Shown here one piece after another: positions 23,579 through 43,167 of a stretch of 64,000 nt of DNA. The translations under genes and the position numbers were made by a program. Under the pieces are notes generated by a model. The model ran no database searches, was not told where the DNA came from, and worked only from the letters and a program-made list of their open reading frames with translations. Origin of the DNA: an uncultured Bacilli bacterium (GTDB lineage Bacteria; Bacillota_I; Bacilli_A; RF39; UBA660); the NCBI GenBank assembly GCA_947632115.1, contig CANROB010000004.1, positions 709-64,708 of the forward strand, in the 5' to 3' direction. The stretch's first letter is position 1; each line of letters starts with the position of its first letter.

Positions 23579-23986
23579 CTATATTTTATCAAAATAAGTA
23601 ATTTTTCTTTCCATGACATCTTCTTCGATGGCATCACGTAATAATTTTCTCACTTTTGCAGGTTCTGGTACATTTTTTAGCCATATTTTGGTACCAGCTC
23701 TCTCACTCGTTCCATGGGTATCCACTACGACGGAAACCGTTCCAATTCCTAATATTCTTTGATAGACACTTTCTGTTGAATCTGGGTCTTTTAACATGTA
23801 TAGTTCAACGGTATTTGTCCTTTTTCTAAAAAAGCCCGTTGTAACAATTAATTCATCTTTTGTAATTTGATAGGTTGTAAAATTCATGTGAATACTTGTT
23901 AAAAAACGTTGCCAAAGTCCTGATGGTTTATCCTCCCACAATATTTCAAAATCAACATTTTTTAAACTTGAATCTTTTGGTTCCAT
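23579..23986 (-). CDS. Bacterial PH-domain (bPH_2/YdbS-like) protein
   Basis: TTYQITKDELIVTTGFFRKRTNTVELYMLKDPDSTESVYQRILGIGTV matches the bPH_2 pattern. GGAGG SD. Confidence 0.55.
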   Translation of the reverse strand: MEPKDSSLKNVDFEILWEDKPSGLWQRFLTSIHMNFTTYQITKDELIVTTGFFRKRTNTVELYMLKDPDSTESVYQRILGIGTVSVVVDTHGTSERAGTKIWLKNVPEPAKVRKLLRDAIEEDVMERKITYFDKI

Positions 23987-24707: not shown

Positions 24708-25346
24708 TTATTTATTCTTTATTTTTTTTACATAAGATTCTACTTTTTTATACCATGTCTTATCCGTTGCATATTTTTTATTGATTTCCTTTGGTGTATC
24801 TAGTCCTTTTGAAAAATAATTCTTTGACAAATTATCTACAAAGCCCTTGATTCCAGCTTCTAAAGAACTAAAAGAGCGGTAACTACCACAACCTTTTCCC
24901 TTTTGACCTCCTACATTATTACATTCTTTCACCAAACGACTACAATTCCATGTACAACCGGTTTCTAATAGTATAATTGCTGTAGCGATATAAGGATCTA
25001 CTCCTTTTTTTAAAGAATAAGAGGCAATCAATTCCCCTTTTCCGGCAATAGTACCCTTTAAAGAACGGTTTAATTTGGTAGATAACTCCTTTAGTGTCAT
25101 ACCATCATAAACAATTTCTTCTTTTTCTTCTTTGACTGGTTCTTCCACAACTTTAGGTTCAGTTAATTCCTCTAATTCTTTAGACTCTTCCTCGTTAGGG
25201 ATAGCTTGTCCAACTTCTGATACGGGAATATCCGTCATTTCTGATTTAGGTTTTTCCACTACAACATCTCTTATGATAACCCCTCCAACGATACAATCTA
25301 TTACTGTCAATAGAACAAGTAATATCGTCTTCTGGTATGCTTTCAC
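24708..25346 (-). CDS. Membrane-anchored glucosaminidase-domain (mannosyl-glycoprotein endo-beta-N-acetylglucosaminidase-like) protein
   Basis: N-terminal TM, Glu/Pro linker, then GVDPYIATAIILLETG...NNVGGQKG, typical of the glucosaminidase domain. GTG start with a GAGGTGA SD. Confidence 0.6.
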   Translation of the reverse strand: MKAYQKTILLVLLTVIDCIVGGVIIRDVVVEKPKSEMTDIPVSEVGQAIPNEEESKELEELTEPKVVEEPVKEEKEEIVYDGMTLKELSTKLNRSLKGTIAGKGELIASYSLKKGVDPYIATAIILLETGCTWNCSRLVKECNNVGGQKGKGCGSYRSFSSLEAGIKGFVDNLSKNYFSKGLDTPKEINKKYATDKTWYKKVESYVKKIKNK

Positions 25347-26902: not shown

Positions 26903-27034
26903 AAAACCGCTCCTATTTTCCCCATTATACCATAGAAAGGGGATTTTTACATCCCTATTTTAGTAGAGAGCTACTAGAGATTTACTAGGCTTTTTCACTT
27001 TCTAAAAAGAAACAATATTTCAAAATAATAGATA

Positions 27035-27060
27035 AGAAAAAAGAAGATTATGCATCTTCT
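27035..27060 (-). terminator. Terminator after pgi
   Basis: Minus strand AGAAGAT-GCATA-ATCTTCT followed by TTTTTC, overlapping the pgi stop. Confidence 0.6.
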
Positions 27061-28229
27061 TTTATTCGTCTATGAAGGATATCCTTATAACCGTTTACTC
27101 CTGGCTGATTATAATAAGGAATATTTAATAAATATCCTCCTAGCATGGCACTCATTTCAAAGAAGAAAATGAGATAACCTAGATTTTCCATAGAAATTTC
27201 ATCCATAGAAATGATGGAACTTGGCAAATGCCCTTCATAGTGTGCTTGGGCAACACTTTCCATCGCTATTTCATTCACACGATCTAATGTCTTATGATAC
27301 TCCTCTAATGCAATCGTATTATCAGAATGCGCAAACAAAATGGTAGAGAATAGGATATCTTTTCCTTCTTGATAATATTGTCCAAGAGAATGTAAATCTC
27401 TAGTATTTATCGTGGAGGTAGGAAGGATTCCCTTATTCTCTTTACCTTGTGATTCTCCAAAGAGTTGCTTTAACCATTCCGCAAAAGAAGCTAATTTAGG
27501 CTCATAGATATCGAAAGACTCTATAAATTTCCCCTCTTGATAGAGTTCATGGCGAAGAAGAGTGTAATAATAACAGGCATTCAAATTTCGTTTGGCTTCT
27601 TCTGCTCCGTAGAAAAGTTCTTCAATATCTAGTCCATTTACAGCAATAGGAAGTAATCCAACAGGAGTCAAAACAGAAAATCTTCCGCCGATATCATCGG
27701 GTACAATAAACCGTGTATATCCCTTTTCCTTGGCAAGTTCTAATAAAGCACCTGTATGGGCATCTGTTGTTACAAAGATTCTATCTTTCGTAGCATCCCC
27801 ATACTTATTTTCCATAAATGTTAAAACTTTGTCAAAAGCAATGGCTGGCTCTAAAGTCGTACCACTTTTAGAAATAACATTTACCATTACTTCCTTATCT
27901 TCTAAGTAATCTAATAACTCTTTTAAGTAGTCACTAGAAAGTTGGTAACCTGCAAAAAGAACCTCTGGTCTCTTTTTGGAAAAGTAGGGAGCCATAGCAT
28001 CAATCACGGCTTTCGCTCCCATATAAGAACCACCAATTCCAATGACTAAAAAGACATCACAATTTTTTCGAATATAAGCAGCAGAATCTAAAATTTTATC
28101 AAAGTCAGTACGGTCAAGACGATACCAACCGCTCATTTGGTTATCTTTTAAAAATCTTTCCTTTAGGTCATTTAAATCATAGTTTTCTAATTTTTTATAC
28201 TGATATTTTTGAAAGTCAAAACGAATCAT
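27048..28229 (-). CDS. pgi: Glucose-6-phosphate isomerase (short Firmicute type)
   Basis: VIGIGGSYMGAKA, SKSGTTLEP, RFSVLTPVGLLP and GESQGK motifs. The start ATG overlaps the stop of the upstream giant gene (ATGA). Confidence 0.9.
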   Translation of the reverse strand: MIRFDFQKYQYKKLENYDLNDLKERFLKDNQMSGWYRLDRTDFDKILDSAAYIRKNCDVFLVIGIGGSYMGAKAVIDAMAPYFSKKRPEVLFAGYQLSSDYLKELLDYLEDKEVMVNVISKSGTTLEPAIAFDKVLTFMENKYGDATKDRIFVTTDAHTGALLELAKEKGYTRFIVPDDIGGRFSVLTPVGLLPIAVNGLDIEELFYGAEEAKRNLNACYYYTLLRHELYQEGKFIESFDIYEPKLASFAEWLKQLFGESQGKENKGILPTSTINTRDLHSLGQYYQEGKDILFSTILFAHSDNTIALEEYHKTLDRVNEIAMESVAQAHYEGHLPSSIISMDEISMENLGYLIFFFEMSAMLGGYLLNIPYYNQPGVNGYKDILHRRIKEDA

Positions 28230-31200
28230 TTTACACTCCTTTTTTGAATGTTTACATTAACATTATGAGTCTTTTTATCATTTACTAATTTAATTTCTTT
28301 TACTACTTTTCCATCTAGACGAATCTCATTATTATCTTTATGATTATTGACATTAATGATATAGGTTGTCTCTTCATAATGATACGTTAATTTATAATTT
28401 TCCCATTTTGATGGAATAGAAGGAAGAATATAAAGTTGCTTACCAATTTTATGAAACCCTAAAATATCCGTAATAGCAACATGATAAAACCAACCACTAG
28501 ATCCTGTATACCATGTCCAACCACCATGTCCAGCAAAATTTGGATTGCTATAAATATCAGCCGCAATAACATATGGCTCTACTTGATATGTCTCTACCGC
28601 TTTCTTTGTTAATGAATGATGAATTGGGTTAATCATTTGATAATAACGATACGCTAAATCATAGAAACCTAATTTTAAAAGTGCCATAATCCACCAAGAT
28701 ACAGAGTGCGTATATTGACCACCATTTTCACGAATACCAGCGGAATAATCCTTAATATATCCTGGATTATCTTGTGGATTAGAAAATGGCGGCGTAAGTA
28801 ACTTAATAAGTCCATGCTCCTCATCAACAAGATTTTCTTCAACTGCTTTTAAAATAGTACGAATTTGACTATCCGTTGCAATATCTGTTAAGATAGCCCA
28901 ACTTTGTGAAATTAAATCCACTTTACATTCTGTATTTTCACGGCTTCCTAATTTATCGCCATTATCGAAATAAGCTCTTAAGTAGTATTCTCCATCCCAA
29001 GCATTTTTCAAAAGTGACTCTTTTAATTTTTTATTAAACTCTTCATAAGTAGTCGTATCTTCTTTGGTATAAGTGTTTAAAATCTCTATATATCTTCGAA
29101 CCACCTCGTACATGAAGAATCCAAGCCATACACTCGTTCCTTTTCCACCAATACCGACACGGTTCATACCATCGTTCCAGTCTCCACCACCCATAAGAGG
29201 AAGACCATTCTCTCCTATTTCGGTAAGGAGTTTCTGCATAATCAAATTTAGATGTTCTTGAAGAGATTTCGTTTCTTCTGTATAAGTAAAACTCATTCCT
29301 CTTTCTTCTTCATCTGGGAATAACTGATCTCCTTGAACAAATGGAATTTGTTCTTTTAAGATACTATCATCATCTGTAACTCTTAAATATTCTAAAGTAG
29401 CATAGATGAGCCACAAATAATCATCTTTATAACGAGAACGCAATCCGAAATGGTTCTCAACATGCCACCAGTGAAGTACATCTCCTTCTGGGAATTGATG
29501 TTTCGCACAGATTAGGATTTGTTTTCGACAAATTTCTGGATCTACTAAACAAATATTCATAGAATCCTGTAGCTGATCTCTAAATCCAAAGGCTCCTCCA
29601 ACCTGATAGAAACCAGATTTTGCCATAATTCGAGAAGCAAGAGTTTGATATAAATACCAGTAATTTACCATGAAATCAAAAGAGGCATCACTTGTTTTTA
29701 CTTCAATCGTAGATAGTTTTTGACCCCACCAGTCAACTGTTTCTTGATATTTCTTCTCTACATAAGAAATATCTTCATATTTTTTAAGTACTGCTTGAAT
29801 ATCGTCAACGTTCTTTTCACATCCAAGAAGGAACGCAAAAGTAATGGAATCTTTCTTACCTATGGTCTCATGAGTATTTACCCGTTTAGAAATAACAGTA
29901 GATGTCTCTACGGACGTAATCTTATTCGTACTTCCGATATAAACAATATTGTTTTGGAAATTCATCGCATATTTGTTTTGGATAGTTAAGAAATTATTCA
30001 GTTCATAATAATTACAAACAAGATGTCTAACCGTTTTTTCTTCTGTCTCTCCTAAAACAGGATTGATCCAATAAGAAATATCGATATCCAAATCTTTTCC
30101 AGAAATATTTTTTAAAGTATAAAGACCTACTTTGACATTTTCCGTAGGAGGAACAAAATACGTTACCTCTAATTTAAATTCTTTATTTTTAAATTTAAAT
30201 TTACTGTAGCCAATACCGTGAATAGCGTCATGCCAAACAATTTGTTGATTGTTAATCATGATTCCTTCTGATTTATCATCAATAATGGTATCGTTTGTCC
30301 AAGAAGTGATCTTATATTCCCGGCTGTTATCAGCATACGTATATCCATTATCATTGTTGGTAATAATGGTACCAAAAGAGCCATTTGTTAGAACATTAGA
30401 CCATGGCATAGGGGTATTAGGATTCGTAATATGGTATTCTTTTCCATCTTTACTAAATCCCCCATATTCATTGAAGAAAAGTAGCTCTTCTTCTTCGTTT
30501 GTGTTCTCACTTTGTAACAATTCTTTTTCCGTATAATCACTCATTTGATTTTCTCTTTGAAGATTATCAATTTGCTCTTTCAAAGAATGGTTATAGTTAG
30601 AATTGAAAGAAAGTCTCGCGATTGCACGGAAGAGATTTAAATCTTCATCGCTCATTTTATTTCTTTCTAGTAAAACAACTCGACCTGGTGTATGGGAGAA
30701 ATTATTAATAGCATACATCCGATACACTTCATCATTTACCATCTTAGCAATAGTCTTTGCGGCTTTTTCATCATAACTATTGACAATGACTAAATCGACA
30801 AAAATACATTTACTCTTGTAGTATTCAAAAGCCTTTAATAATTCAAGAGCAATAGAAGAAGAATCTAAATCATTCATCTCTAATAAGATAATTGGTCGAT
30901 CCCCACTTATTCCAAAACTCCATAATGTGTTTTGTCCTAATCTGTTTTGAAGGAGCAAACGTTTACGCGTTTCATTTAAGTGAATACGACTTGTTTGATT
31001 GAGATAGTTTAACATCATATTATAGTGATGAACATCTGCGCCTGTTACTCCCAATTTCTTAGTAGCAGCATTTACCATCATAGTCGCTAATTCAAAAGCT
31101 TCTTCAATGGTATCCTCATTATGATAAGCATTTACAATAGATAATACCTGTTCTTCAGATTTACCAAAACCAGTAATCATATAAACCGTTACTTCTTTTA

Positions 31201-34200
31201 AAGAAGGAATTTCAATTCTATTTCGAATACAACTAATTAGATCAATATTTTCCCCCACATAATTTGTTAGTTTTTTATGAATACCACTTGGTTTATGGTA
31301 GTCTGTACCACGCTCTAAGAAATGACTTCTTTCTGTTTCATAACTATACTCTTCTAATGGATTTTCCACTAAAAGCTTATTCACCATATAAAATCTATCT
31401 TTCGTTCCTCTAATACGACGACTTAAAATAAGGGAAGAAGTATCTTCATGGAAAGAAGATTTCATAAACATGTTATTAAATACCCGATGTCCAATATCCG
31501 CATCTCTTTCTGAAAGAATTGGTTCTGTATAGGTTGTTAACTCTAATTTTTTCGTTTTTGGGGATACATTTTTAAAAGTAATTTTGCGGATTTCTGCATT
31601 ATGCCTTTTGGTAACAATAATCTCTGTATTCGTAACAATATCATTATCAACACGCATATAACGAATTCTATCTAGTGCAAAAACAACATTATAACGATCT
31701 GGTTTTACATTAGTTGGAACATAGGTGTTACTCCATACTTTGTTATTTTCTAGATCACGAATATATAAGAAATTTCCATATTCTTGCTCTGTTATTTTCC
31801 GATAACGATTTAATTGAATTGTTTTATAGCGACTGAATCCCGCACCGCGGTCATTGATTAAAATGCAGTACCGAGAATTCGAAAGAACGGAAACTTCTGG
31901 TCGCTGAGATAAATAGGCATATTCCCGAATATCATTTTCAAAGATTTCTTTATCGTAATCATATTTTTTGTATTTAACAATTTTTAAATCAATCATTGGT
32001 TCAATTTGAACTTTTTCTTTGTTTAAAACATCAAAAGATTGAACACGAATATCTTTATAGAAGTATTCCTTAAGGGAATCCTTGCAAAGAAGATTTGCTA
32101 AAGAGCAAAGAATCATTCCTTGATGATGGGCAAAATAAGAGAAAATTGGTGTCTTATCTTCATAATCGTAAGATTCAAAGAATCCATACTTGCCATACAT
32201 CTTTAATTTTTTAAATTTTTGTAAGTTATTATAAACATCTTTTGGGAATCTAGTAATCGCAAGAATAGATCCATAAGGAGAAAGTACAATACGTTCTTCG
32301 GAATTATCTCTAAATTTTAAGTATGGTGTTCCAAAAGCCTTATATTTATAATTTTCAGAATCATCTAATAAATTATAAGCTGCTTCACTAATTCCCCATG
32401 GCATAGCGCTATCAATAGATTTCATGTATTCTTTTTGGCAAAAGTAAGCAAAATAATAACTTTCATCCATTAACGTATTTGGATAAGCTTTCATCCAAAT
32501 CAGTGGCATAAAGTATTCAAAAGAAGTTCCGGACCAAGACAGTAATCCTTTTCTACCCATAAAAGTAGTAAGGGTTTTATCAAGTAAGAACCAGTGGTTC
32601 TTCTTGATATCTCCTTTGGCAATGGCAATGAAACTAGTAAGTCTTGCTTCACTAGCAAATTTATTGTAATTAAAAGGAATTAATTGTTCATTATAAGCAT
32701 CATAACCACAACTAAATACCATTTCATCTTTGTTATATAGATATTTAAAGTTTGTCTGACGAATTAAATTTTCAATACGATTTTTTAAGTTCTCAGAGCC
32801 ATTTTCTTTGATAAAAGATTTTACTACCATCAAAGAAGCGACAAAGTTTCCACTATCTACTGTCGAAATAGTAGGTGGATACATCCTACTTAAGGTCTTA
32901 ACATTGTACCAGTTATAAAGATGTCCATGCCATTTTTCTAACCGTTCTACCGTTTCAATAACCTTTTCAATTTTAAAGGTTGCTTCCTCTTTTGTGATAA
33001 ATCCTAATTCAGAAGCACTGATAAGTGCCATAAGAGAAAAACCAATATTGGTAGGAGAAGTCTTCACGTCCTCTTTTACTTCACGGTTTAACTGATAATT
33101 ATCAACAATTAAATAATTATTTTCTTCTAATAGTAAATCGTCATAAAACTTCCAAGTATCATACGCAAGTTTCCGTAAATCTTCGGTCTCTTTTTTCAAC
33201 AATTTTTTCCCGCCACGTCGAATATCCTTACTAATTAAGTAAAAGACTGGGCTTCCAATAAAGAAGATTAGCGCAATACCAAATGTTAAAGACAAATATT
33301 CTTTTCTAAAAAGAAAGACAAGTAGTAAAAAGAAGAAAGATACAAAATAATTGACTTTAAAATTTACTAGATAAGAGAAGAACGTATTTTTAGTCGTTTT
33401 ACTAGCATCATCTGCCGTAATCCAAGCAAGTAAATGTTTATGGCTGACATGCATTCTCCACCAAGCTCTAATAAAGGCATCCATATATAATTTAGCATTA
33501 TAAGGAAGGGCACTAAAAGTGGAAAACGTCCGAATAAAGACTGCTTTAAATCCATAAGCGATATTTTCATAATGTTTTATCTTTAAGGTTCTCTCTTTTT
33601 GAATTCTTATTTTATCCCGAATATAAAAGAAAATAGGAAGAATAAGAACACCTGTTACAAAAAGAATCCACCAAGCAGGATTAGATACCCCTACTAAAAG
33701 AGAAAGGATGAGGATGAAAAGTAAAGTTACTTCCAAAAAACCTCTTCTTAAATTATCAAAGATTTTCCACCGTTCAATGACATTTAAAGGGGATTTTTTA
33801 GGGTTGAGCCAAGAAGCAATCTGCATATCTCCTCTAGCCCAACGATGTCTTCTTGTAGCATCTGCTAGGAAAGTAGATGGGAAATCATCAATGACCTCAA
33901 CATCAGATACAAAGCCACAACGAATATAATTTCCCTCTAATAAATCGTGACTTAAAATACGATTATTTGGAAATAATCCCGTTAAGACTTCATCAAATGT
34001 TTCTAGATCATAAATTCCTTTTCCCCAGAAACTACCTTCTTTAAAGACATCCTGGTAGAAATTAGCAACTACTTTATTATAAATATCATAACCACCAATA
34101 CCAGCATAGATTTGGGTATATAAAGATTGGTTAGTAGATTCTACATCTACACTTACCTTTGGTTGCATAATCGCATATCCATCAATAACTTTCGTGTGTT

Positions 34201-35911
34201 CTTTATTAAGAACTGGTTGATTAAGAGGATGTGCCATTGTTCCTGCTAATTGAGATGCAGCTCCTAGGATCAATTGTGTATCTTGATCTAGGGTAATAAC
34301 ATATTTAATCTTTTTATCAAATTCATCGAAAGTATCTGTCATGTAATACTGATTTTTCTCAGCATCGCTAAATTTTCCAAGAAGAAGACGATTAAATTGC
34401 TCTAAAGCACCTCTTTTACGCTCAAATCCAAGCCATTCCTCTTCTGATTCATTATAAACTCTTTTTCGATAAATGAAATAAAAGATATCTTTTCCATATT
34501 TTTGATTTAATTTTTTTGCTCTTTCACGTCCTGCCTCTACAATTTCATCATCAAAAGGTTCAATTTGCCGAGAACTAGAAGAAGCATCTCCCAAAAGGGT
34601 GAAATAAAGATTATCTGATTTATTTGCTAAATAGTAAGATTCTAGGGTGTCAAACATCCTTTCTACTTTATCAACACTCTTTAGAATCGTGACAATTACA
34701 GTCATCGTAGCAGCATTCTTTGGAATTCCATCAGTAAAATCTAGTTTAGGAATTGGTTTTGGGGGATAAAATTTAAGATACGTTCTCGTTCCAATTTCTA
34801 ATACCACTTCACTAACAGGAATAAGAAGGATAATCGTTCCTAAAATTCTAGATGGAATAAAATATTTAGAAAGTAAAAAAGAAATAATAAAGGTTAAAAT
34901 AGACATCAAACTGGTGAAGACAATTGCCCGTAATTTTAAGTTTTCTTTTTTTCTTAAATACTCTCCTACATGCTTATTTTCCTTAGTAGCACGAGCAATA
35001 ATTCCTTTCATGTATTCATATTCTGTTTGATGAGCTTTTTTAGCATTGATAAGGACTCTTTCCCGGTATAATTCTTTTGTCTCCGTTGTCATTTGTCCAT
35101 AACAAGAATCCATTAATAAAATATATTCTGTCTTACTAACTTTACGATAGAGTTTTTCAATTTCAATTTTATTCAATTTTACGATACTATTAAAGATATT
35201 CGCAACTAACATGTTTTCTTCCGCAACACCTTGATAAACACCTTCAATAATCGTATTTAAACTAATATTCTTAGCATCTAGTATTTCATTTAATTGTTTA
35301 AAGACTTCATTAGAACGTTGTCCTAATTCTTTTAAACCAGCATTTAATCTTTCCAAATAAACTGGTCTTTGAACAATATCTTCCGTAATCGTAATATAGT
35401 CATGAAGATCGACCTCATGATATTTATGAATATCCTGTTCAATCGTTTCAATAATATTTTTTACTTCAAAAGATTCCTTTAATCTTTTTTCTTCACGACC
35501 ACATAATTTTACTAACTCATCTAAAAGAACTAAATAACAAACTACACCAATAGAATTCATTTCATAATAAGAAAAATAATAAGAGAAATTGTCCTGATAA
35601 AGATTTAACTCTTGAATTAACGTATTCACATCAATCTTAAATTTATTTCTCTTCAAAATCTTTTCCATAATAGTATAAAGATTTTGATCTTTTTTAAAAG
35701 CATATTTATAAGCTTTTCGATTCTTTAAAAAGGCTTTGGTAGTTTTTTCACGTTCCACTAATAGATAATAATTATCTACAATCCATTCATTTACTGTGCC
35801 AATGTAATAATGCTCATTTGTAAGTCCTGTTAAATAGGTATAGTATGAAGAGATGATATCCTTATTTTTATAAAAGTCTTTACGATATTTCCGCAAATTG
35901 ATTCCTCCCAT
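28226..35911 (-). CDS. cgs: Cyclic beta-1,2-glucan synthase-like giant protein (N-terminal TM + GT84-like glycosyltransferase, central glucoamylase-like domain, C-terminal GH94-like phosphorylase)
   Basis: 2561 aa. GT region: ITLDQDTQL...RRHRWARGDMQI. Central region: SPTNIGFSLMALISASELGF...WHGHLYNWYN...VDSGNF. C-terminal region: FGFRDQLQDS...GGGDWNDGMNRVG...ENGGQYTH, typical of the GH94/cellobiose-phosphorylase fold. Several TM segments flank the GT domain. This architecture equals ChvB/NdvB/Cgs. Confidence 0.85.
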   Translation of the reverse strand: MGGINLRKYRKDFYKNKDIISSYYTYLTGLTNEHYYIGTVNEWIVDNYYLLVEREKTTKAFLKNRKAYKYAFKKDQNLYTIMEKILKRNKFKIDVNTLIQELNLYQDNFSYYFSYYEMNSIGVVCYLVLLDELVKLCGREEKRLKESFEVKNIIETIEQDIHKYHEVDLHDYITITEDIVQRPVYLERLNAGLKELGQRSNEVFKQLNEILDAKNISLNTIIEGVYQGVAEENMLVANIFNSIVKLNKIEIEKLYRKVSKTEYILLMDSCYGQMTTETKELYRERVLINAKKAHQTEYEYMKGIIARATKENKHVGEYLRKKENLKLRAIVFTSLMSILTFIISFLLSKYFIPSRILGTIILLIPVSEVVLEIGTRTYLKFYPPKPIPKLDFTDGIPKNAATMTVIVTILKSVDKVERMFDTLESYYLANKSDNLYFTLLGDASSSSRQIEPFDDEIVEAGRERAKKLNQKYGKDIFYFIYRKRVYNESEEEWLGFERKRGALEQFNRLLLGKFSDAEKNQYYMTDTFDEFDKKIKYVITLDQDTQLILGAASQLAGTMAHPLNQPVLNKEHTKVIDGYAIMQPKVSVDVESTNQSLYTQIYAGIGGYDIYNKVVANFYQDVFKEGSFWGKGIYDLETFDEVLTGLFPNNRILSHDLLEGNYIRCGFVSDVEVIDDFPSTFLADATRRHRWARGDMQIASWLNPKKSPLNVIERWKIFDNLRRGFLEVTLLFILILSLLVGVSNPAWWILFVTGVLILPIFFYIRDKIRIQKERTLKIKHYENIAYGFKAVFIRTFSTFSALPYNAKLYMDAFIRAWWRMHVSHKHLLAWITADDASKTTKNTFFSYLVNFKVNYFVSFFFLLLVFLFRKEYLSLTFGIALIFFIGSPVFYLISKDIRRGGKKLLKKETEDLRKLAYDTWKFYDDLLLEENNYLIVDNYQLNREVKEDVKTSPTNIGFSLMALISASELGFITKEEATFKIEKVIETVERLEKWHGHLYNWYNVKTLSRMYPPTISTVDSGNFVASLMVVKSFIKENGSENLKNRIENLIRQTNFKYLYNKDEMVFSCGYDAYNEQLIPFNYNKFASEARLTSFIAIAKGDIKKNHWFLLDKTLTTFMGRKGLLSWSGTSFEYFMPLIWMKAYPNTLMDESYYFAYFCQKEYMKSIDSAMPWGISEAAYNLLDDSENYKYKAFGTPYLKFRDNSEERIVLSPYGSILAITRFPKDVYNNLQKFKKLKMYGKYGFFESYDYEDKTPIFSYFAHHQGMILCSLANLLCKDSLKEYFYKDIRVQSFDVLNKEKVQIEPMIDLKIVKYKKYDYDKEIFENDIREYAYLSQRPEVSVLSNSRYCILINDRGAGFSRYKTIQLNRYRKITEQEYGNFLYIRDLENNKVWSNTYVPTNVKPDRYNVVFALDRIRYMRVDNDIVTNTEIIVTKRHNAEIRKITFKNVSPKTKKLELTTYTEPILSERDADIGHRVFNNMFMKSSFHEDTSSLILSRRIRGTKDRFYMVNKLLVENPLEEYSYETERSHFLERGTDYHKPSGIHKKLTNYVGENIDLISCIRNRIEIPSLKEVTVYMITGFGKSEEQVLSIVNAYHNEDTIEEAFELATMMVNAATKKLGVTGADVHHYNMMLNYLNQTSRIHLNETRKRLLLQNRLGQNTLWSFGISGDRPIILLEMNDLDSSSIALELLKAFEYYKSKCIFVDLVIVNSYDEKAAKTIAKMVNDEVYRMYAINNFSHTPGRVVLLERNKMSDEDLNLFRAIARLSFNSNYNHSLKEQIDNLQRENQMSDYTEKELLQSENTNEEEELLFFNEYGGFSKDGKEYHITNPNTPMPWSNVLTNGSFGTIITNNDNGYTYADNSREYKITSWTNDTIIDDKSEGIMINNQQIVWHDAIHGIGYSKFKFKNKEFKLEVTYFVPPTENVKVGLYTLKNISGKDLDIDISYWINPVLGETEEKTVRHLVCNYYELNNFLTIQNKYAMNFQNNIVYIGSTNKITSVETSTVISKRVNTHETIGKKDSITFAFLLGCEKNVDDIQAVLKKYEDISYVEKKYQETVDWWGQKLSTIEVKTSDASFDFMVNYWYLYQTLASRIMAKSGFYQVGGAFGFRDQLQDSMNICLVDPEICRKQILICAKHQFPEGDVLHWWHVENHFGLRSRYKDDYLWLIYATLEYLRVTDDDSILKEQIPFVQGDQLFPDEEERGMSFTYTEETKSLQEHLNLIMQKLLTEIGENGLPLMGGGDWNDGMNRVGIGGKGTSVWLGFFMYEVVRRYIEILNTYTKEDTTTYEEFNKKLKESLLKNAWDGEYYLRAYFDNGDKLGSRENTECKVDLISQSWAILTDIATDSQIRTILKAVEENLVDEEHGLIKLLTPPFSNPQDNPGYIKDYSAGIRENGGQYTHSVSWWIMALLKLGFYDLAYRYYQMINPIHHSLTKKAVETYQVEPYVIAADIYSNPNFAGHGGWTWYTGSSGWFYHVAITDILGFHKIGKQLYILPSIPSKWENYKLTYHYEETTYIINVNNHKDNNEIRLDGKVVKEIKLVNDKKTHNVNVNIQKRSVK

Positions 35912-35935: not shown

Positions 35936-35944
35936 ATTATATCA
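35936..35944 (-). promoter_or_regulatory. Extended -10 promoter box (TGATATAAT) of the cgs-pgi operon
   Basis: Minus strand TTTTTTTTGATATAAT, 24 nt upstream of the cgs ATG. Confidence 0.5.
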
Positions 35945-35984: not shown

Positions 35985-37109
35985 CTATGTTCTTTTTTTC
36001 CATACATAAGAGATTTCATCATCTCTATCAACAGCGATAAAATCCTCAAATAAAGATTCATGATTAGAAACCACATCATCTACCGATAATTGTAAAGACT
36101 GAAGAATATATTTTCTCTCTTCATCCGTACTAACAGTCGGTAGAAGATTAATCGCTTCATATAACCGGTAGTCTAAAAGAACTTTTTCTACTTGAGAGAT
36201 TTTCTTTCTAAGAAATTGCCGATCTAATTCATCTAAATTCTCTGTTTCTTCAGCACTTTTTCCTTTCTCACGATAAAGTTGATAGAGTTTTAATCGTATA
36301 TCTCTCGTTTTGTAGGTCTCTTTACTTAGAAAAATACAAGCAATAATACTTTCTATTTCACTTTCTCCCCTGTTCATTTTCTCTTTGACATAACGATCAT
36401 CTAACTTCTCTTTAATTAAAAAATGATATAAAAGAATGTCTCCAATCGCAAAAGAATAAGCAAAATTCATTCTCTGACCTTCTCTTTGGTACTTTGAAAT
36501 AGCTTCCTCAACAGGCAAAGAATACTTTTTTATTAAATAATAAATAACATTATAGTTCAATTGATTTTGAATACAATATTTCGCTAAAGAAATTCCATTA
36601 ACTTTTAAGATATCTTTCTTTTGGTACTGATTAATGATTTTTTGAATTTCCTCTTCTTGATAAATATGCTTAGGATTTAACACTTTTTGAAAATAATGTC
36701 TAGGAATTCCTGTTAATAAGGAAATCCGATAAAGAGATACTTCACGACCCATAAAAGGATACTTACAGGCAATATTTTCTTGAATTTCTAAAACCGCTTC
36801 TTCAAGAGGTATCCCTTTTTTAAGCCTGCGATAAAGTGGTTCTTTAGAAATACCATTTTCTAAAGCAATTTGGCTAATTGTGAGTTCTCTTCCCCGCCAA
36901 AGATATTTTTTTGCTTCTTGATTATTGGTCTTTTCTCGGTTCTTAAAAACAACGGCTGATTTTCTTTTTCCCTCTTCTATCGCATCATAAAGGGTAAACC
37001 CTTGATTTAAATATTTATAAAGGGTAGAAGGCGCAAGATGCACCATACCAGCAATCGTTTTAACAGATAATAACTTTCCTTCATATTCTTGTAATTTTCC
37101 TTGATACAT
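35985..37109 (-). CDS. Hypothetical protein with four tandem HTH-like repeats
   Basis: Repeats: LSVKTIAGMVHLAPSTLYKYLNQGFTLYDAIEEG; LTISQIALENGISKEPLYRRLKKGIPLEEAVLE; VSLYRISLLTGIPRHYFQKVL; ISLAKYCIQNQLNYNVIYYLIKKYSLPVEEAISKY. AGGAG SD, 7 nt after the upstream 78-aa gene. Confidence 0.5.
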   Translation of the reverse strand: MYQGKLQEYEGKLLSVKTIAGMVHLAPSTLYKYLNQGFTLYDAIEEGKRKSAVVFKNREKTNNQEAKKYLWRGRELTISQIALENGISKEPLYRRLKKGIPLEEAVLEIQENIACKYPFMGREVSLYRISLLTGIPRHYFQKVLNPKHIYQEEEIQKIINQYQKKDILKVNGISLAKYCIQNQLNYNVIYYLIKKYSLPVEEAISKYQREGQRMNFAYSFAIGDILLYHFLIKEKLDDRYVKEKMNRGESEIESIIACIFLSKETYKTRDIRLKLYQLYREKGKSAEETENLDELDRQFLRKKISQVEKVLLDYRLYEAINLLPTVSTDEERKYILQSLQLSVDDVVSNHESLFEDFIAVDRDDEISYVWKKRT

Positions 37110-37116
37110 AAATCTC

Positions 37117-37353
37117 CTACTTATTTGTATTTTGATAATAATTTCTTTCTGCTAATTGTATAGATAAATTTTCTAATTCCTCTATTTCTTCTTCTTCGAG
37201 TACTTGATCAATTTGATAAAGCAATTCTGTCATTTGAAAACATTTTTCATAATCAATATTATAACGATTTAAAATATCTACCTCTAAATCACTCAACCAA
37301 AGGCCATGTTTTCTTGGTTTTAAAAATCTTTTTTCAAAATCCATTTCATCCAT
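37117..37353 (-). CDS. Hypothetical small acidic protein (78 aa)
   Basis: GAGGGA SD. First gene of a two-gene operon with the tandem-HTH protein. Confidence 0.5.
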   Translation of the reverse strand: MDEMDFEKRFLKPRKHGLWLSDLEVDILNRYNIDYEKCFQMTELLYQIDQVLEEEEIEELENLSIQLAERNYYQNTNK

Positions 37354-41809: not shown

Positions 41810-41836
41810 AAAAAAAAGGGAAAGTCAAACTTTCTC
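41810..41836 (-). terminator. Putative terminator overlapping the RT stop codon
   Basis: Minus strand GAGAAAGT-TTG-ACTTTCCC (6-7 bp stem, 3-nt loop) followed by T8. Confidence 0.45.
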
Positions 41837-43012
41837 TTTTGTAAACTCATAATATTCATGAACCAAACTACGATACCCTGTACTTTTTAATAGTTGATAA
41901 GGGACTTTTGATTTATCCGTTTTACTGTATCTTCCTGTTTTTAAGTAACGTAATTGCTGTTGAAAATAACTATCAATTTCTTTTAGACCACTACTCACTG
42001 TAAGAACAGGAAAATACCAAATACTCCAGTTTAATTCTTTCCCTGGTCTTTCATAAAAAAACTTATAATTAAAAATATTGTTTAAAGCCTTCATAGCTTT
42101 CTCACTAGGAACATTTTTTCGTAGCATCCAACGTCTAAGAGCTCTTGCCTTTCTTCTAATTTTGGCTTTCATTTTTTGCTTAGAATGAGGCGAGAGATTA
42201 ATTCCACAAGAAGAATAAAAGAAGCCTAAAAATTCAAAAGGTTCTCCCTTATCAATAAAGTATTCTTTCTTTTCATTGATCTCAAGATTTAAATCCTTAA
42301 AGGTAGAGCGAATTTCTTCTACTTTTTTTAAAAGTTCTTGTTTCGTTGGTAAAAAAAGAAGGATATCATCTGCATATCTAGCATAGCAAACATCTATCAT
42401 TTTCCAATCTAATTCCGATAAATAAAGATTAGATAAAAAGCAAGAAATCGGTGTTCCTGCCATAACTCCTTTTTCTTCTTCTAGAATCTCTCCTTGATAA
42501 AGAACTCTTTTATCTTCTAATAACTTCTCAAAAAACAAATAACATTTCTCATCCACTTTTTCCTTTAACATTTGAAGTAATTTAGGAACAGAAATACTAT
42601 TAAAATAGTTATGAATATCTACTTTATATCCATATCCTAAAGTCGTATGAACTACCTTCCAAAAAGCCTGTTTTGGACCAATCTTTTGGCGAAAAGAATA
42701 ACAATTAGGAGCGAATAAAAAGTCATATTCTCCTAATAAATAGTGGATCATTTTTAAAATAATTGTCTCTTCTTTAGAAAAAGAATACACTACTCTTTTT
42801 TGTCCAGAAGCATTTTTATTAATTTTCTTTTTCATAGGAATCGAAAAAGAATAATCACCAGCTACAATCTTAGAAGAAATTGGCAAATATTTTTTTTCAT
42901 CAATGTATTGTTTTAATTCTTCATATTCCTTTTTCGTTAAATTTCTTTGTTCTTTGTAATTTAAAAAAGAATACCAAGCATTTTGATCTATTAAACTGTC
43001 TAAAACAGACAT
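41825..43012 (-). CDS. Free-standing reverse transcriptase (RNA-directed DNA polymerase), unclassified family
   Basis: RT motifs read in order: IPMKKKINKNASGQKRVVY (1/2), CYSFRQKIGPKQAF (2a), YKVDIHNYFNSI (A), GVMAGTPISCFLSNLYLSELD (B), YARYADDILLF (C; YADD codons 42365-42376), LEINEKKE (D), FEFLGFFY (E). There is an RT0-like N-terminal extension and a basic thumb-like C-terminus of about 125 aa. GGTGGTG SD at 43017-43023. Confidence 0.9.
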   Translation of the reverse strand: MSVLDSLIDQNAWYSFLNYKEQRNLTKKEYEELKQYIDEKKYLPISSKIVAGDYSFSIPMKKKINKNASGQKRVVYSFSKEETIILKMIHYLLGEYDFLFAPNCYSFRQKIGPKQAFWKVVHTTLGYGYKVDIHNYFNSISVPKLLQMLKEKVDEKCYLFFEKLLEDKRVLYQGEILEEEKGVMAGTPISCFLSNLYLSELDWKMIDVCYARYADDILLFLPTKQELLKKVEEIRSTFKDLNLEINEKKEYFIDKGEPFEFLGFFYSSCGINLSPHSKQKMKAKIRRKARALRRWMLRKNVPSEKAMKALNNIFNYKFFYERPGKELNWSIWYFPVLTVSSGLKEIDSYFQQQLRYLKTGRYSKTDKSKVPYQLLKSTGYRSLVHEYYEFTKEKV

Positions 43013-43152
43013 ATTTCACCACCAAGGAAGAGAATCAATTGAATCATTGATGAAATCAATGAATGACAAGGTTATATATATCCCAGTCACTTGCAAAACT
43101 ATTTTATAGGATATACTGAACCCGCTACAAGTAGTGTTTCCACATCTCTTCC
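43013..43152 (-). ncRNA. Candidate structured 5' leader / RT-associated non-coding RNA
   Basis: 146 nt separate the TGATATAAT box from the RT ATG. Complementary segments on the minus strand: GGAAGAGA (43145-43152) with TCTCTTCC (43026-43033), a closing stem; TATATCC (43109-43115) with GGATATA (43077-43083); TCATTGAT (43055-43062) with ATCAATGA (43044-43051), TTC loop. No ORF. Confidence 0.4.
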
Positions 43153-43158
43153 ACAGTC

Positions 43159-43167
43159 ATTATATCA
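43159..43167 (-). promoter_or_regulatory. Extended -10 promoter box (TGATATAAT) of the RT module
   Basis: Minus strand TTTTTTTGATATAAT, immediately after the upstream terminator. The same box is seen in front of cgs, the SDR gene, the 333-aa gene and the 24048 gene. Confidence 0.5.

Follow-up and report, generated by a model that had tools for sequence, protein, structure and literature searches.

The window analyzed here, a 64,000-nucleotide stretch from an uncultured bacterium of the class Bacilli, carries on its minus strand a cyclic glucan synthase gene (cgs) followed directly by a glucose-6-phosphate isomerase gene (pgi). Work on cyclic beta-1,2-glucans in Brucella, Agrobacterium and the rhizobia has treated them as osmoprotectants of the periplasm and as factors in host interaction. 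The host of this cgs, a gut MAG of 1.45 Mb, encodes Spo0A, SpoIVA and CotF and is therefore, as originally predicted, an endospore former by gene content; its class and the genes of peptidoglycan and sortase type found in the window lead us to infer that it is monoderm.

The cgs gene and the modules of its product

The cgs reading frame (28226..35911, minus strand; 2561 aa) proved, on a check of the ORFs in the window, to be the single stop-free ORF that had been described, and its product matches Agrobacterium Cgs over the full length (8RF0/8RF9; E = 0, 1311 bits). The GC content of the gene equals that of the genome. The motifs first taken as diagnostic are all present: ITLDQDT at aa 539-545, RWARGD within HRWARGD at 689-695, RDQLQDS at 2111-2117 and GGDWNDG at 2242-2248. 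The true start is most likely not the first codon but the sixth, an in-frame TTG (35896-35894, minus strand) that lies 6 nt past the Shine-Dalgarno sequence GGGAGGA (35909-35903), which would give a protein of 2556 aa. This TTG is preferred because cgs of relatives begins at the same position and one of these loci, L001, lacks an upstream ATG.

The protein begins with an all-helical scaffold (aa 1 to ~320; 34952..35911, minus strand), identified from a weak match to the N-terminal domain of Agrobacterium Cgs and from an AlphaFold2 (AF2) model. The membrane-embedded GT84 unit that follows (33233..34927, minus strand) was delimited from the 8RF0 alignment and the transmembrane segments: TM1-2 (aa 329-374), a GT-A domain (aa ~385-720) and TM3-6 (aa 724-893), the six hydrophobic helices forming three hairpins (aa 329-374, 724-764 and 848-893). 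The Pfam family Glyco_trans_2_3 matches aa 538-756 with 26.1 bits, slightly under the gathering score of 27 set for that family; what supports the assignment to GT84 is the alignment with Agrobacterium Cgs and the fold, not this match. Next comes a GH189 cyclization (beta-1,2-glucanotransferase) domain (aa 916-1300; 32012..33166, minus strand), placed by alignment to 8RF0 and to 8WY1, the cyclization domain of the Thermoanaerobacter italicus enzyme TiCGS, and matched by Pfam Glycoamylase at aa 1084-1284. The GH94 phosphorylase half (aa 1338-2509; 28385..31900, minus strand), recognized by Pfam and by the Agrobacterium alignment, has supersandwich domains (two Pfam stretches), a segment that aligns with the Rossmann-like subdomain, and a catalytic (alpha/alpha)6 domain at aa 2061-2485 (Pfam E 3e-104). 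A single polypeptide so carries, in this order, helical scaffold, six-helix anchor, glycosyltransferase, cyclase and phosphorylase. The end-to-end alignment, the Pfam domains (the glycosyltransferase match being sub-gathering) and the AlphaFold models agree on the Cgs/ChvB/NdvB architecture that had been proposed.

Alignment to 8RF0 and 8WY1 shows that all 16 mapped functional residues are kept; the substitution of GT or GH94 catalytic residues, which would have told against the original prediction, does not occur. In 38 short-form Cgs sequences (the window protein and 37 homologues, 44-88% identical), 15 of the 16 are invariant and the remaining one, D2247, is conserved in at least 90%. For GT84, D442, R498, D542/D544, D656 and R690/R693 (with W691) correspond to Agrobacterium D527, R586, D624/D626, D739 and R773/R776, and Tyr611, in the sequence GGYDIYNK, aligns with the primer tyrosine Y694; these are invariant throughout the set. 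The GH94 aspartates D2112 (in RDQLQD) and D2247 (the catalytic acid, in GGDWND) correspond to D2393 and D2528. The roles of the GT84, primer and GH94 residues are those established for Agrobacterium Cgs (Sedzicki et al. 2024, PMC10901819). For GH189, the acid/base E1088, E1132, the nucleophile E1176 and H1262/H1263, likewise invariant, correspond to TiCGS E1356, E1400, E1442 and H1536/H1537, whose roles come from the cyclization domain of that enzyme (Tanaka et al. 2024, PMC10834661).

Against 8RF9/8RF0, the AF2 model of aa 6-905 reaches a TMq of 0.82; in this model pLDDT is low for the IF1-homology loop bearing Y611, which is what a mobile loop should show. The cyclase-domain model (pLDDT 84.9) gave a TMq of 0.84 against Agrobacterium Cgs and, in Foldseek, a TMq of 0.88 and a TMt of 0.67 against 8WY1. 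Judged by predicted fold and aligned residues, the helical scaffold, six-helix anchor, GT84, GH189 and GH94 are thus all in place, each catalytically complete by sequence.

Promoter, pgi and the sporulation question

Upstream of cgs, behind a T-rich tract, is an extended -10 element of the sigma-A type, TGATATAAT (35936..35944, minus strand). The corresponding TGnTATAAT is invariant in six cgs loci of the same genus, and in other genera of the family promoters of the type TTGAAT/TTGATT-17/18-TGnTATTAT lie upstream of cgs. From this consensus match, the cgs promoter appears to be a conserved sigma-A extended -10.

The downstream gene, pgi (27048..28229, minus strand; 393 aa), encodes a Firmicute-type glucose-6-phosphate isomerase (NCBIfam NF010697, 419.6 bits against a cut-off of 443; PDB 3FF1, 1e-95). 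It is the only PF00342 match in the genome and hence the sole PGI. The neighbors of cgs had been called uncharacterized, which does not hold for this gene. The cgs stop codon (TGA, 28228-28226) and the pgi start codon (ATG, 28229-28227) overlap in an ATGA (28226..28229, minus strand), and the pgi Shine-Dalgarno sequence AAAGGAG sits within the 3' end of cgs; on these features cgs is, as read from the sequence, translationally coupled to the genome's only pgi. A terminator-like hairpin found by pattern match after pgi (26940..26955, minus strand) probably ends the cgs-pgi transcription unit; a separate pgi promoter inside the 3' end of cgs is also possible. In 12 of 12 loci (L001-L012) the two genes are separated by -4 to +4 nt, and with a further 13 of 13 loci pgi directly follows cgs in all 25 related loci (44-88% Cgs identity), among which the other flanking genes vary. 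Three short-form loci at about 50% identity (L017-L019) have no pgi.

Is cgs, then, a sporulation gene? A sporulation or forespore role had been suggested. On such a view the mother cell or forespore would express Cgs, and the cyclic glucan, acting as osmolyte or protectant, would fill the spore core or the intermembrane/cortex space. The Spo0A, SpoIVA and CotF of the host are compatible with this, as is the presence of SpoIVA in 18 of the 23 short-form cgs carriers examined. Promoter pattern and gene content, the two tests applied, otherwise speak indirectly against it. The sigma-A extended -10 is conserved, whereas the 250 nt upstream of cgs contain no sigma F, G, E or K pattern in any of 11 regions, those of the window and of 10 relatives. 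The sole pgi, to which cgs appears translationally coupled, is a growth-phase glycolytic gene. Five short-form carriers of the family, at least 95% complete, lack SpoIVA and have a truncated, divergent or absent Spo0A, and three long-form carriers are also SpoIVA-less; nor is cgs positively associated with SpoIVA (odds ratio 0.29, p 0.23). We therefore regard the suggested role as very unlikely.

The explanation that we favor as a whole, and consider probable, is a compact Cgs made from a sigma-A-driven operon with pgi and not restricted to sporulation. If it works as its homologues Agrobacterium Cgs and TiCGS do, its catalytic domains would all face the cytoplasm. GT84 would glucosylate Tyr611 in the IF1h loop and elongate a beta-1,2 chain from NDP-glucose, presumably UDP-glucose; GH94 would use phosphate to trim the chain, freeing alpha-glucose-1-phosphate and limiting chain length; and GH189, with E1176 as nucleophile and E1088 as acid/base, would use transglycosylation to free a ring of about 17-25 glucoses. 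With cgs and pgi forming a bicistronic, translationally coupled operon under a sigma-A-type promoter, Cgs would be made in growing cells, and not only during sporulation, and would be tied to the hexose-phosphate pool (fructose-6-phosphate, glucose-6-phosphate and glucose-1-phosphate, in reversible exchange). The glucan could be retained in the cytoplasm or leave by some other route.

Distribution, substrate supply and fate of the glucan

About 13 of the 20 species of the genus have cgs and about one third lack it. Full-length copies occur in 15 sampled genomes from 11 genera of the family, with carrier genomes of 0.7-1.8 Mb; the gene takes up 0.5% of the window genome and more than 1% of that of a 0.7-Mb relative. 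Canonical GalU was not detected in the window genome or in 15 other genomes of the genus (TIGR01099 scores no higher than 35 bits, against a cut-off of 327); the same model gives 305-389 bits in seven genomes belonging to other genera of the class, five of them above the cut-off. The absence of canonical GalU counts against the favored reading, the only candidate suppliers of NDP-glucose in the window genome being two proteins of the NTP-transferase family. None of the six ABC exporters of the genome was recognized as a ChvA/NdvA-type exporter and none adjoins cgs; the glucan-exporter models score at best 338 bits (NF010178, cut-off 733) and 285 bits (TIGR01192, cut-off 585), and are never the top match. 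This too is a point against the favored reading.

The lack of canonical GalU and of a recognized exporter, together with the absence of the gene from about a third of the species, could mean that cgs is a non-functional relic, retained by chance or merely because the pgi transcript begins with it. This is scarcely credible, given a 7.7-kb frame intact in a 1.45-Mb genome, catalytic residues conserved in at least 90% of 38 sequences that are only 44-88% identical, and full-length copies in 11 sampled genera with genomes down to 0.7 Mb. Rather, selection on cgs appears to be strong, and this in spore-former genomes that are among the smallest.

Another reading is a cytoplasmic reserve or buffer: in these minimal genomes, which lack glycogen, the main work of Cgs would be to make beta-1,2-glucan, linear or cyclic, within the cell and to break it down by phosphorolysis, and the alpha-glucose-1-phosphate released by GH94 would enter glycolysis via a PgmG-like phosphohexomutase and PGI. 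The genome does encode such a mutase, pgi follows cgs in every one of the 25 loci, and the GH94 catalytic residues are conserved in at least 90% of sequences (D2112 being invariant); moreover, no GlgA, no ChvA-type exporter and no separate GH94, SOGP or beta-1,2-glucanase gene was detected in the window genome. However, rings offer a phosphorylase no free end and the TiCGS cyclase transglycosylates without hydrolysis (PMC10834661), so how a cyclic product would be remobilized is unexplained. The cyclase residues are, besides, as well conserved as those of GH94, and the pgi linkage, which L017-L019 lack, may reflect mere co-expression or inherited synteny. We judge this reading unlikely. Its extension to the whole family of gut Bacilli with very small genomes, a cytoplasmic beta-1,2-glucan cycle in which a monomeric compact Cgs and co-translated PGI would store hexose phosphate as (cyclic) beta-1,2-glucan in times of abundant sugar and GH94 would return glucose-1-phosphate, is quite unlikely; if it were true, the periplasmic host-interaction polymer of Proteobacteria would be, in monoderms, an internal carbon and osmotic buffer, with a nucleotidyltransferase other than GalU feeding it.

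On the favored reading, cgs would be wired not to sporulation but to central sugar metabolism, and the compact Cgs would work without a dimerization motif, a detectable GalU or a recognizable exporter. The locus narrows the question of what cyclic glucans do in bacteria without a periplasm; it does not answer it.

Comparison with known Cgs systems

Agrobacterium Cgs/ChvB (8RF0, 8RF9, 8RFE; PMC10901819), Brucella Cgs and rhizobial NdvB have the same module order as the window protein, which is about 270 aa shorter than Agrobacterium Cgs, its N-terminal domain and linkers being trimmed and a four-helix motif missing. The setting differs too: the window host, a spore former of the class Bacilli, has no periplasm and no detected canonical GalU, and its cgs is in an operon with pgi and has no adjacent or recognizable ChvA/NdvA exporter.

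The missing motif is an insert of about 120-160 aa in the cyclase domain, absent from the window protein in alignments to both Agrobacterium Cgs and TiCGS. Window positions 1035 and 1041 correspond to 1120 and 1253 in Agrobacterium Cgs and to chain positions 142 and 301 in TiCGS, where about 158 extra residues are bridged in the window protein by about five (TMt 0.67); the GH189 (alpha/alpha)6 barrel itself is present. The TiCGS authors called the extra alpha-helices unique to CGSs (PMC10834661), and in Agrobacterium Cgs the four-helix motif mediates back-to-back dimers (PMC10901819). The insert is an accessory, non-catalytic feature, and since the dimerization motif is missing the window enzyme probably works as a monomer. 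The missing insert is nevertheless a point against the favored explanation, in which cyclization would proceed without it. The compact form may also be a simpler enzyme for in vitro production of cyclic glucans.

TiCGS is itself a Firmicute Cgs (match E 3.5e-99), and its cyclase domain is the only part of a Gram-positive Cgs with biochemistry (PMC10834661). The role of Cgs in Firmicutes had been described as essentially unknown, and a literature search indeed found no paper addressing it in Gram-positives. Long-form Cgs from another family of the same class (G184, G303 and G324; ~2925-2936 aa) shares the modules, with 33-47% full-length identity, but has an insert of about 177 aa where the window protein has aa 1036-1039; these loci have no downstream pgi and their hosts, with genomes of about 2 Mb, lack SpoIVA. 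SOGP, which also acts on beta-1,2-glucan and releases alpha-glucose-1-phosphate, has the GH94 catalytic fold and catalytic Asp in common with the window protein; SOGP, however, is a soluble, stand-alone catabolic enzyme, whereas the GH94 described here makes up the C-terminal half of a synthase anchored in the membrane. With thousands of relatives in the databases, and such genes very common in gut Firmicutes, the window Cgs is a minor departure from a well-known kind of enzyme.

Architecture and catalytic residues of the Cgs protein

The original prediction read cgs (28226-35911, minus strand) as one uninterrupted frame for a cyclic β-1,2-glucan synthase (Cgs). ORF calling bears this out, giving 2561 codons, and all four motifs that had been quoted from the product (P0001) are present, at residues 539-545, 689-695, 2111-2117 and 2242-2248. 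The expected domains were likewise recovered by a Pfam scan: a GT2-type transferase (residues 538-756; 26.1 bits, slightly under the gathering score of 27), a 'glucoamylase' domain (1084-1284), the GH94 supersandwich in two stretches, and the GH94 catalytic domain (2061-2485; E = 3e-104). In a hydropathy scan three hairpins stand out (329-374, 724-764 and 848-893), which together make six membrane helices, in agreement with the six-helix membrane anchor of Agrobacterium Cgs (PMC10901819). As to the start codon, no ribosome-binding site precedes the ATG at 35911. GGGAGGA is followed 6 nt later by an in-frame TTG at 35896, and relatives start at the TTG position, one of them having no upstream ATG. 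These features suggest that the TTG is probably the true start and that the product has 2556 residues.

P0001 aligns over its full length with Agrobacterium tumefaciens Cgs (PDB 8RF0/8RF9; E = 0, 1311 bits), and its middle part matches the cyclisation domain of the Thermoanaerobacter italicus enzyme, TiCGS, for which there is a crystal structure (8WY1; 3.5e-99). We mapped every residue named as functional in the two structural papers (PMC10901819, PMC10834661), and every one is kept in P0001. In the GT84 domain these are D442, R498, D542/D544, D656 and R690/R693 (Agrobacterium D527, R586, D624/D626, D739 and R773/R776), together with the primer tyrosine Y611 (Y694). In the GH189 domain they are E1088, E1132, E1176 and H1262/H1263 (TiCGS E1356, E1400, E1442 and H1536/H1537), and in the GH94 domain D2112 and D2247 (Agrobacterium D2393 and D2528). 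Across 37 homologues aligned with P0001 (44-88% identical), none of the GT84 or GH189 residues varies and neither does D2112; D2247 is at least 90% conserved. AlphaFold models made from the same alignment were confident, with a pLDDT of 84.9 and a pTM of 0.87 for the cyclase domain, and of 85.3 and 0.78 for the N-terminal 900 residues. Their top PDB matches were 8WY1 (TMq 0.88) and 8RF9/8RF0 (TMq 0.82-0.84), with β-1,2-glucanases (about 0.7) and the cellulose synthase BcsA (0.36) far behind.

P0001 has, then, the architecture, fold and catalytic residues of a Cgs. Substituted GT or GH94 residues, an outcome that would have told against the original prediction, were sought in the alignment and none was found. 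Judged from its sequence the protein looks enzymatically active, and we consider it very probable that it is an active β-1,2-glucan synthase. The contrary reading, that cgs is a non-functional relic, would have to accommodate this full set of retained residues and is hardly credible.

Compared with Agrobacterium Cgs, P0001 is shorter by about 270 residues, and the biggest single difference lies in the cyclase domain, where in the alignment residues 1035-1041 span Agrobacterium 1120-1253 and TiCGS chain positions 142-301. In Agrobacterium the missing stretch is a four-helix motif of about 120 residues that makes back-to-back dimers (PMC10901819); the authors of the TiCGS study describe the same stretch as additional helices 'unique to CGSs' (PMC10834661). 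Because P0001 lacks this piece, the target-normalised TM-score to 8WY1 is only 0.67. A long form of the protein (about 2925-2936 residues), found in another family of the same class, carries an insert of about 177 residues at the same point. These comparisons point to P0001 being a compact and probably monomeric form. The compact form is very common in metagenomes, and nearly all of the best 120 database clusters listed are 2540-2570 residues long, most of them about 50% identical to P0001.

Two other genomes of the host genus, G009 and G014, are without a full cgs. They have ORFs of 661-681 residues (G009:C15:6644-7606 and G014:C13:22797-23807) that match, at 34-37% identity, only Cgs residues ~231-581, a stretch running from the final part of the NTD through TM1-2 to the middle of GT84. 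These ORFs could encode small GT84-like proteins in their own right, or could be remnants.

Gene neighborhood and predicted promoter of cgs

The stop codon of cgs overlaps the start codon of pgi (27048-28229, minus strand) in the sequence ATGA, and a ribosome-binding site, AAAGGAG, lies inside the 3' end of cgs. The pgi product is a Firmicute-type glucose-6-phosphate isomerase (PDB 3FF1, 1e-95; NF010697, 419.6 bits against a cut-off of 443). As it is the sole PGI of the host genome and is nearest to the housekeeping Firmicute PGIs, we rejected the idea of a specialised paralog. The gap between cgs and pgi is -4 to +4 nt in 12 of 12 loci from species-representative genomes (45-88% Cgs identity), and in the 13 further short-form loci for which downstream DNA is available, all from other genera, the gene that follows cgs is always pgi; no flanking gene other than pgi is common to different genera. 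A pattern search places a terminator-like hairpin downstream of pgi. From this arrangement we infer that cgs and pgi form a conserved, translationally coupled operon. No pgi was found next to cgs in the three long-form loci or in two short-form loci from other assemblies (L017-L019; cgs about 50% identical). The latter have oxidative-stress genes in place of pgi, so that the pgi link is specific to the host family and one neighbouring family. The oxidative-stress genes near these short-form cgs genes encode an MsrA-MsrB fusion, desulfoferrodoxin, Cu-SOD and TerC (L017 15752-18847; L018 1072-1998, 7321-7800 and 15895-16278).

Upstream of cgs, an extended -10 element, TGnTATAAT, follows a T-rich tract and is invariant in six loci of the same genus; the copy in the window is TGATATAAT. 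At the corresponding position, other genera carry promoters resembling TTGAAT/TTGATT-17/18-TGnTATTAT, and in all 9 of 11 cgs upstream regions have a sigma-A extended -10. A generic promoter scan of the region stayed at background level (62 found versus 60 expected), which is as compatible with an internal pgi promoter as with none.

Directly upstream of cgs (35985-37353, minus strand) are genes for a 78-residue acidic protein and a 374-residue protein with weak resolvase-type HTH matches. Both occupy the same position in five same-genus loci and are not found there in other genera; since their conservation is limited to the genus, we rejected them as conserved partners and place them outside the core unit. 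A weak hairpin with a T-run separates them from the cgs promoter. Downstream of cgs-pgi, a membrane-anchored glucosaminidase-domain protein (24708-25346) and a bacterial PH-domain protein (23579-23986), both on the minus strand, are encoded among genes without a family match, and the conservation of this pair stops at the genus boundary. The window further encodes a reverse transcriptase of the stand-alone type (Pfam RVT_1; 41825-43012, minus strand), whose neighbors are unannotated and which adjoins 43013-43167.

Distribution of cgs and the sporulation question

The nearest public relatives of the host genome (1.45 Mb in 46 contigs, 95.8% complete, 32% GC) are MAGs labelled 'uncultured Bacilli bacterium' and recovered from the guts of rabbits, mice and sheep. 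Its description as a spore former agrees with its gene content, namely genes for Spo0A, SpoIVA and, within the window, a CotF-domain protein; that the host is monoderm is presumed from its class and from cell-wall genes that the window contains. About 13 of the 20 species in the host genus have a full-length cgs, as do 15 sampled genomes of the host family (11 genera, genome sizes 0.7-1.4 Mb) and one genome of a neighbouring family. Given this spread, and a GC content (0.315) that matches that of the genome (0.321), recent horizontal transfer of cgs was rejected.

Genomes of 0.8-1.8 Mb in the host family encode full-length SpoIVA and Spo0A (e.g. G126, G248, G061, G199 and G297, at 0.8-0.9 Mb); if these two proteins mark sporulation, such members have very small genomes for endospore formers. 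In several sister lineages in the family (G076, G147, G192, G234, G041 and G137), SpoIVA is absent and Spo0A survives only as short or divergent frames for its C domain, which gives the impression of an ongoing loss of sporulation.

Does cgs act in sporulation, as originally proposed? A regular-expression scan of the 250 nt preceding cgs in 11 loci, those of the window and of 10 relatives, gave no match to sigma F, G, E or K patterns. Spore-only transcription is also hard to reconcile with the coupling of cgs to a single-copy glycolytic pgi, unless pgi has an internal promoter. Nor is there a positive association between cgs and SpoIVA (odds ratio 0.29, p 0.23): SpoIVA is encoded by 18 of 23 short-form carriers, by 25 of the 27 family genomes without cgs (two lack it) and by none of the three long-form carriers. 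The five short-form carriers without SpoIVA are all at least 95% complete; one has no Spo0A, and in the other four Spo0A is represented by short or divergent C-domain frames alone (125-210 residues, 76-117 bits, versus about 260 residues and 135-150 bits in controls). The absence of sporulation sigma motifs, the tie to the sole pgi and the existence of SpoIVA-less carriers all argue indirectly against the proposed link, and we regard a sporulation-specific role as very unlikely.

Metabolic context and proposed mechanism

Canonical GalU (TIGR01099) was not detected in the host genome or in 15 further members of the genus, where the model never scored above 35 bits (cut-off 327). Elsewhere in the class, in seven genomes outside the genus, it gave 305-389 bits and passed the cut-off in five. 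Two NTP-transferase-family proteins of the host could supply the glucose donor. The first, of 295 residues, is encoded next to truB (contig C21:11494-12378; L031:2492-3379, minus strand). It matches an uncharacterised structural-genomics entry (PDB 3PNN) at 6e-61, with UGPases next-best at 1e-6. Its family, to which no curated function is attached, is highly conserved and very widespread: it numbers about 8000 relatives, and the top 120 share 61-85% identity. We view the 295-residue protein as a candidate sugar-1-phosphate nucleotidyltransferase. The second, encoded on contig C23, has 241 residues.

The sole α-D-phosphohexomutase detected (contig C2:~84950-86106; L049:1453-2595) is cut by the contig end; its best match is a PgmG-type PGM/PMM, and it is not GlmM-like. 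No separate GlmM was seen in the host genome, so the PgmG-like enzyme may act on glucose and glucosamine phosphate alike, or a gene may sit in an assembly gap. Glycogen synthase was not found in the host genome. A search of that genome with the whole Cgs matched cgs alone, and thus a second GH94 or GH144-like gene is not evident. None of its six ABC exporters reaches the model cut-offs for ChvA/NdvA, and none lies near cgs; generic MsbA-like exporters could carry the glucan.

By homology, Tyr611 would be autoglucosylated, GT84 would elongate the β-1,2 chain, phosphorolysis by GH94 would set its length, freeing α-G1P, and GH189 would close the ring, all at the cytoplasmic face of the membrane. 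The genomic context further suggests that cgs would be expressed from a sigma-A promoter in growth phase, jointly with pgi. We think it likely that this account holds as a whole, the probable monomeric state included. An overlapping explanation, in which the GH94 domain and PGI serve a cytoplasmic reserve or buffer cycle, seems rather unlikely.

On the function of Cgs or cyclic β-1,2-glucans in Gram-positive, Firmicute or sporulating bacteria, a literature search found, apart from reviews, just the T. italicus domain study; one of the reviews labels T. italicus Gram-negative. The kind of enzyme is already known, a Firmicute member (that of T. italicus) has been studied biochemically, and Cgs-like genes are abundant in gut Firmicutes. 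Specific to the present locus are the missing GalU, GlgA and ChvA-type exporter, the compact form, which has none of the 'CGS-unique' helices, the translational coupling of cgs to the only pgi, seen throughout the family, and the retention of cgs in extremely small genomes, some of them seemingly past the loss of sporulation.
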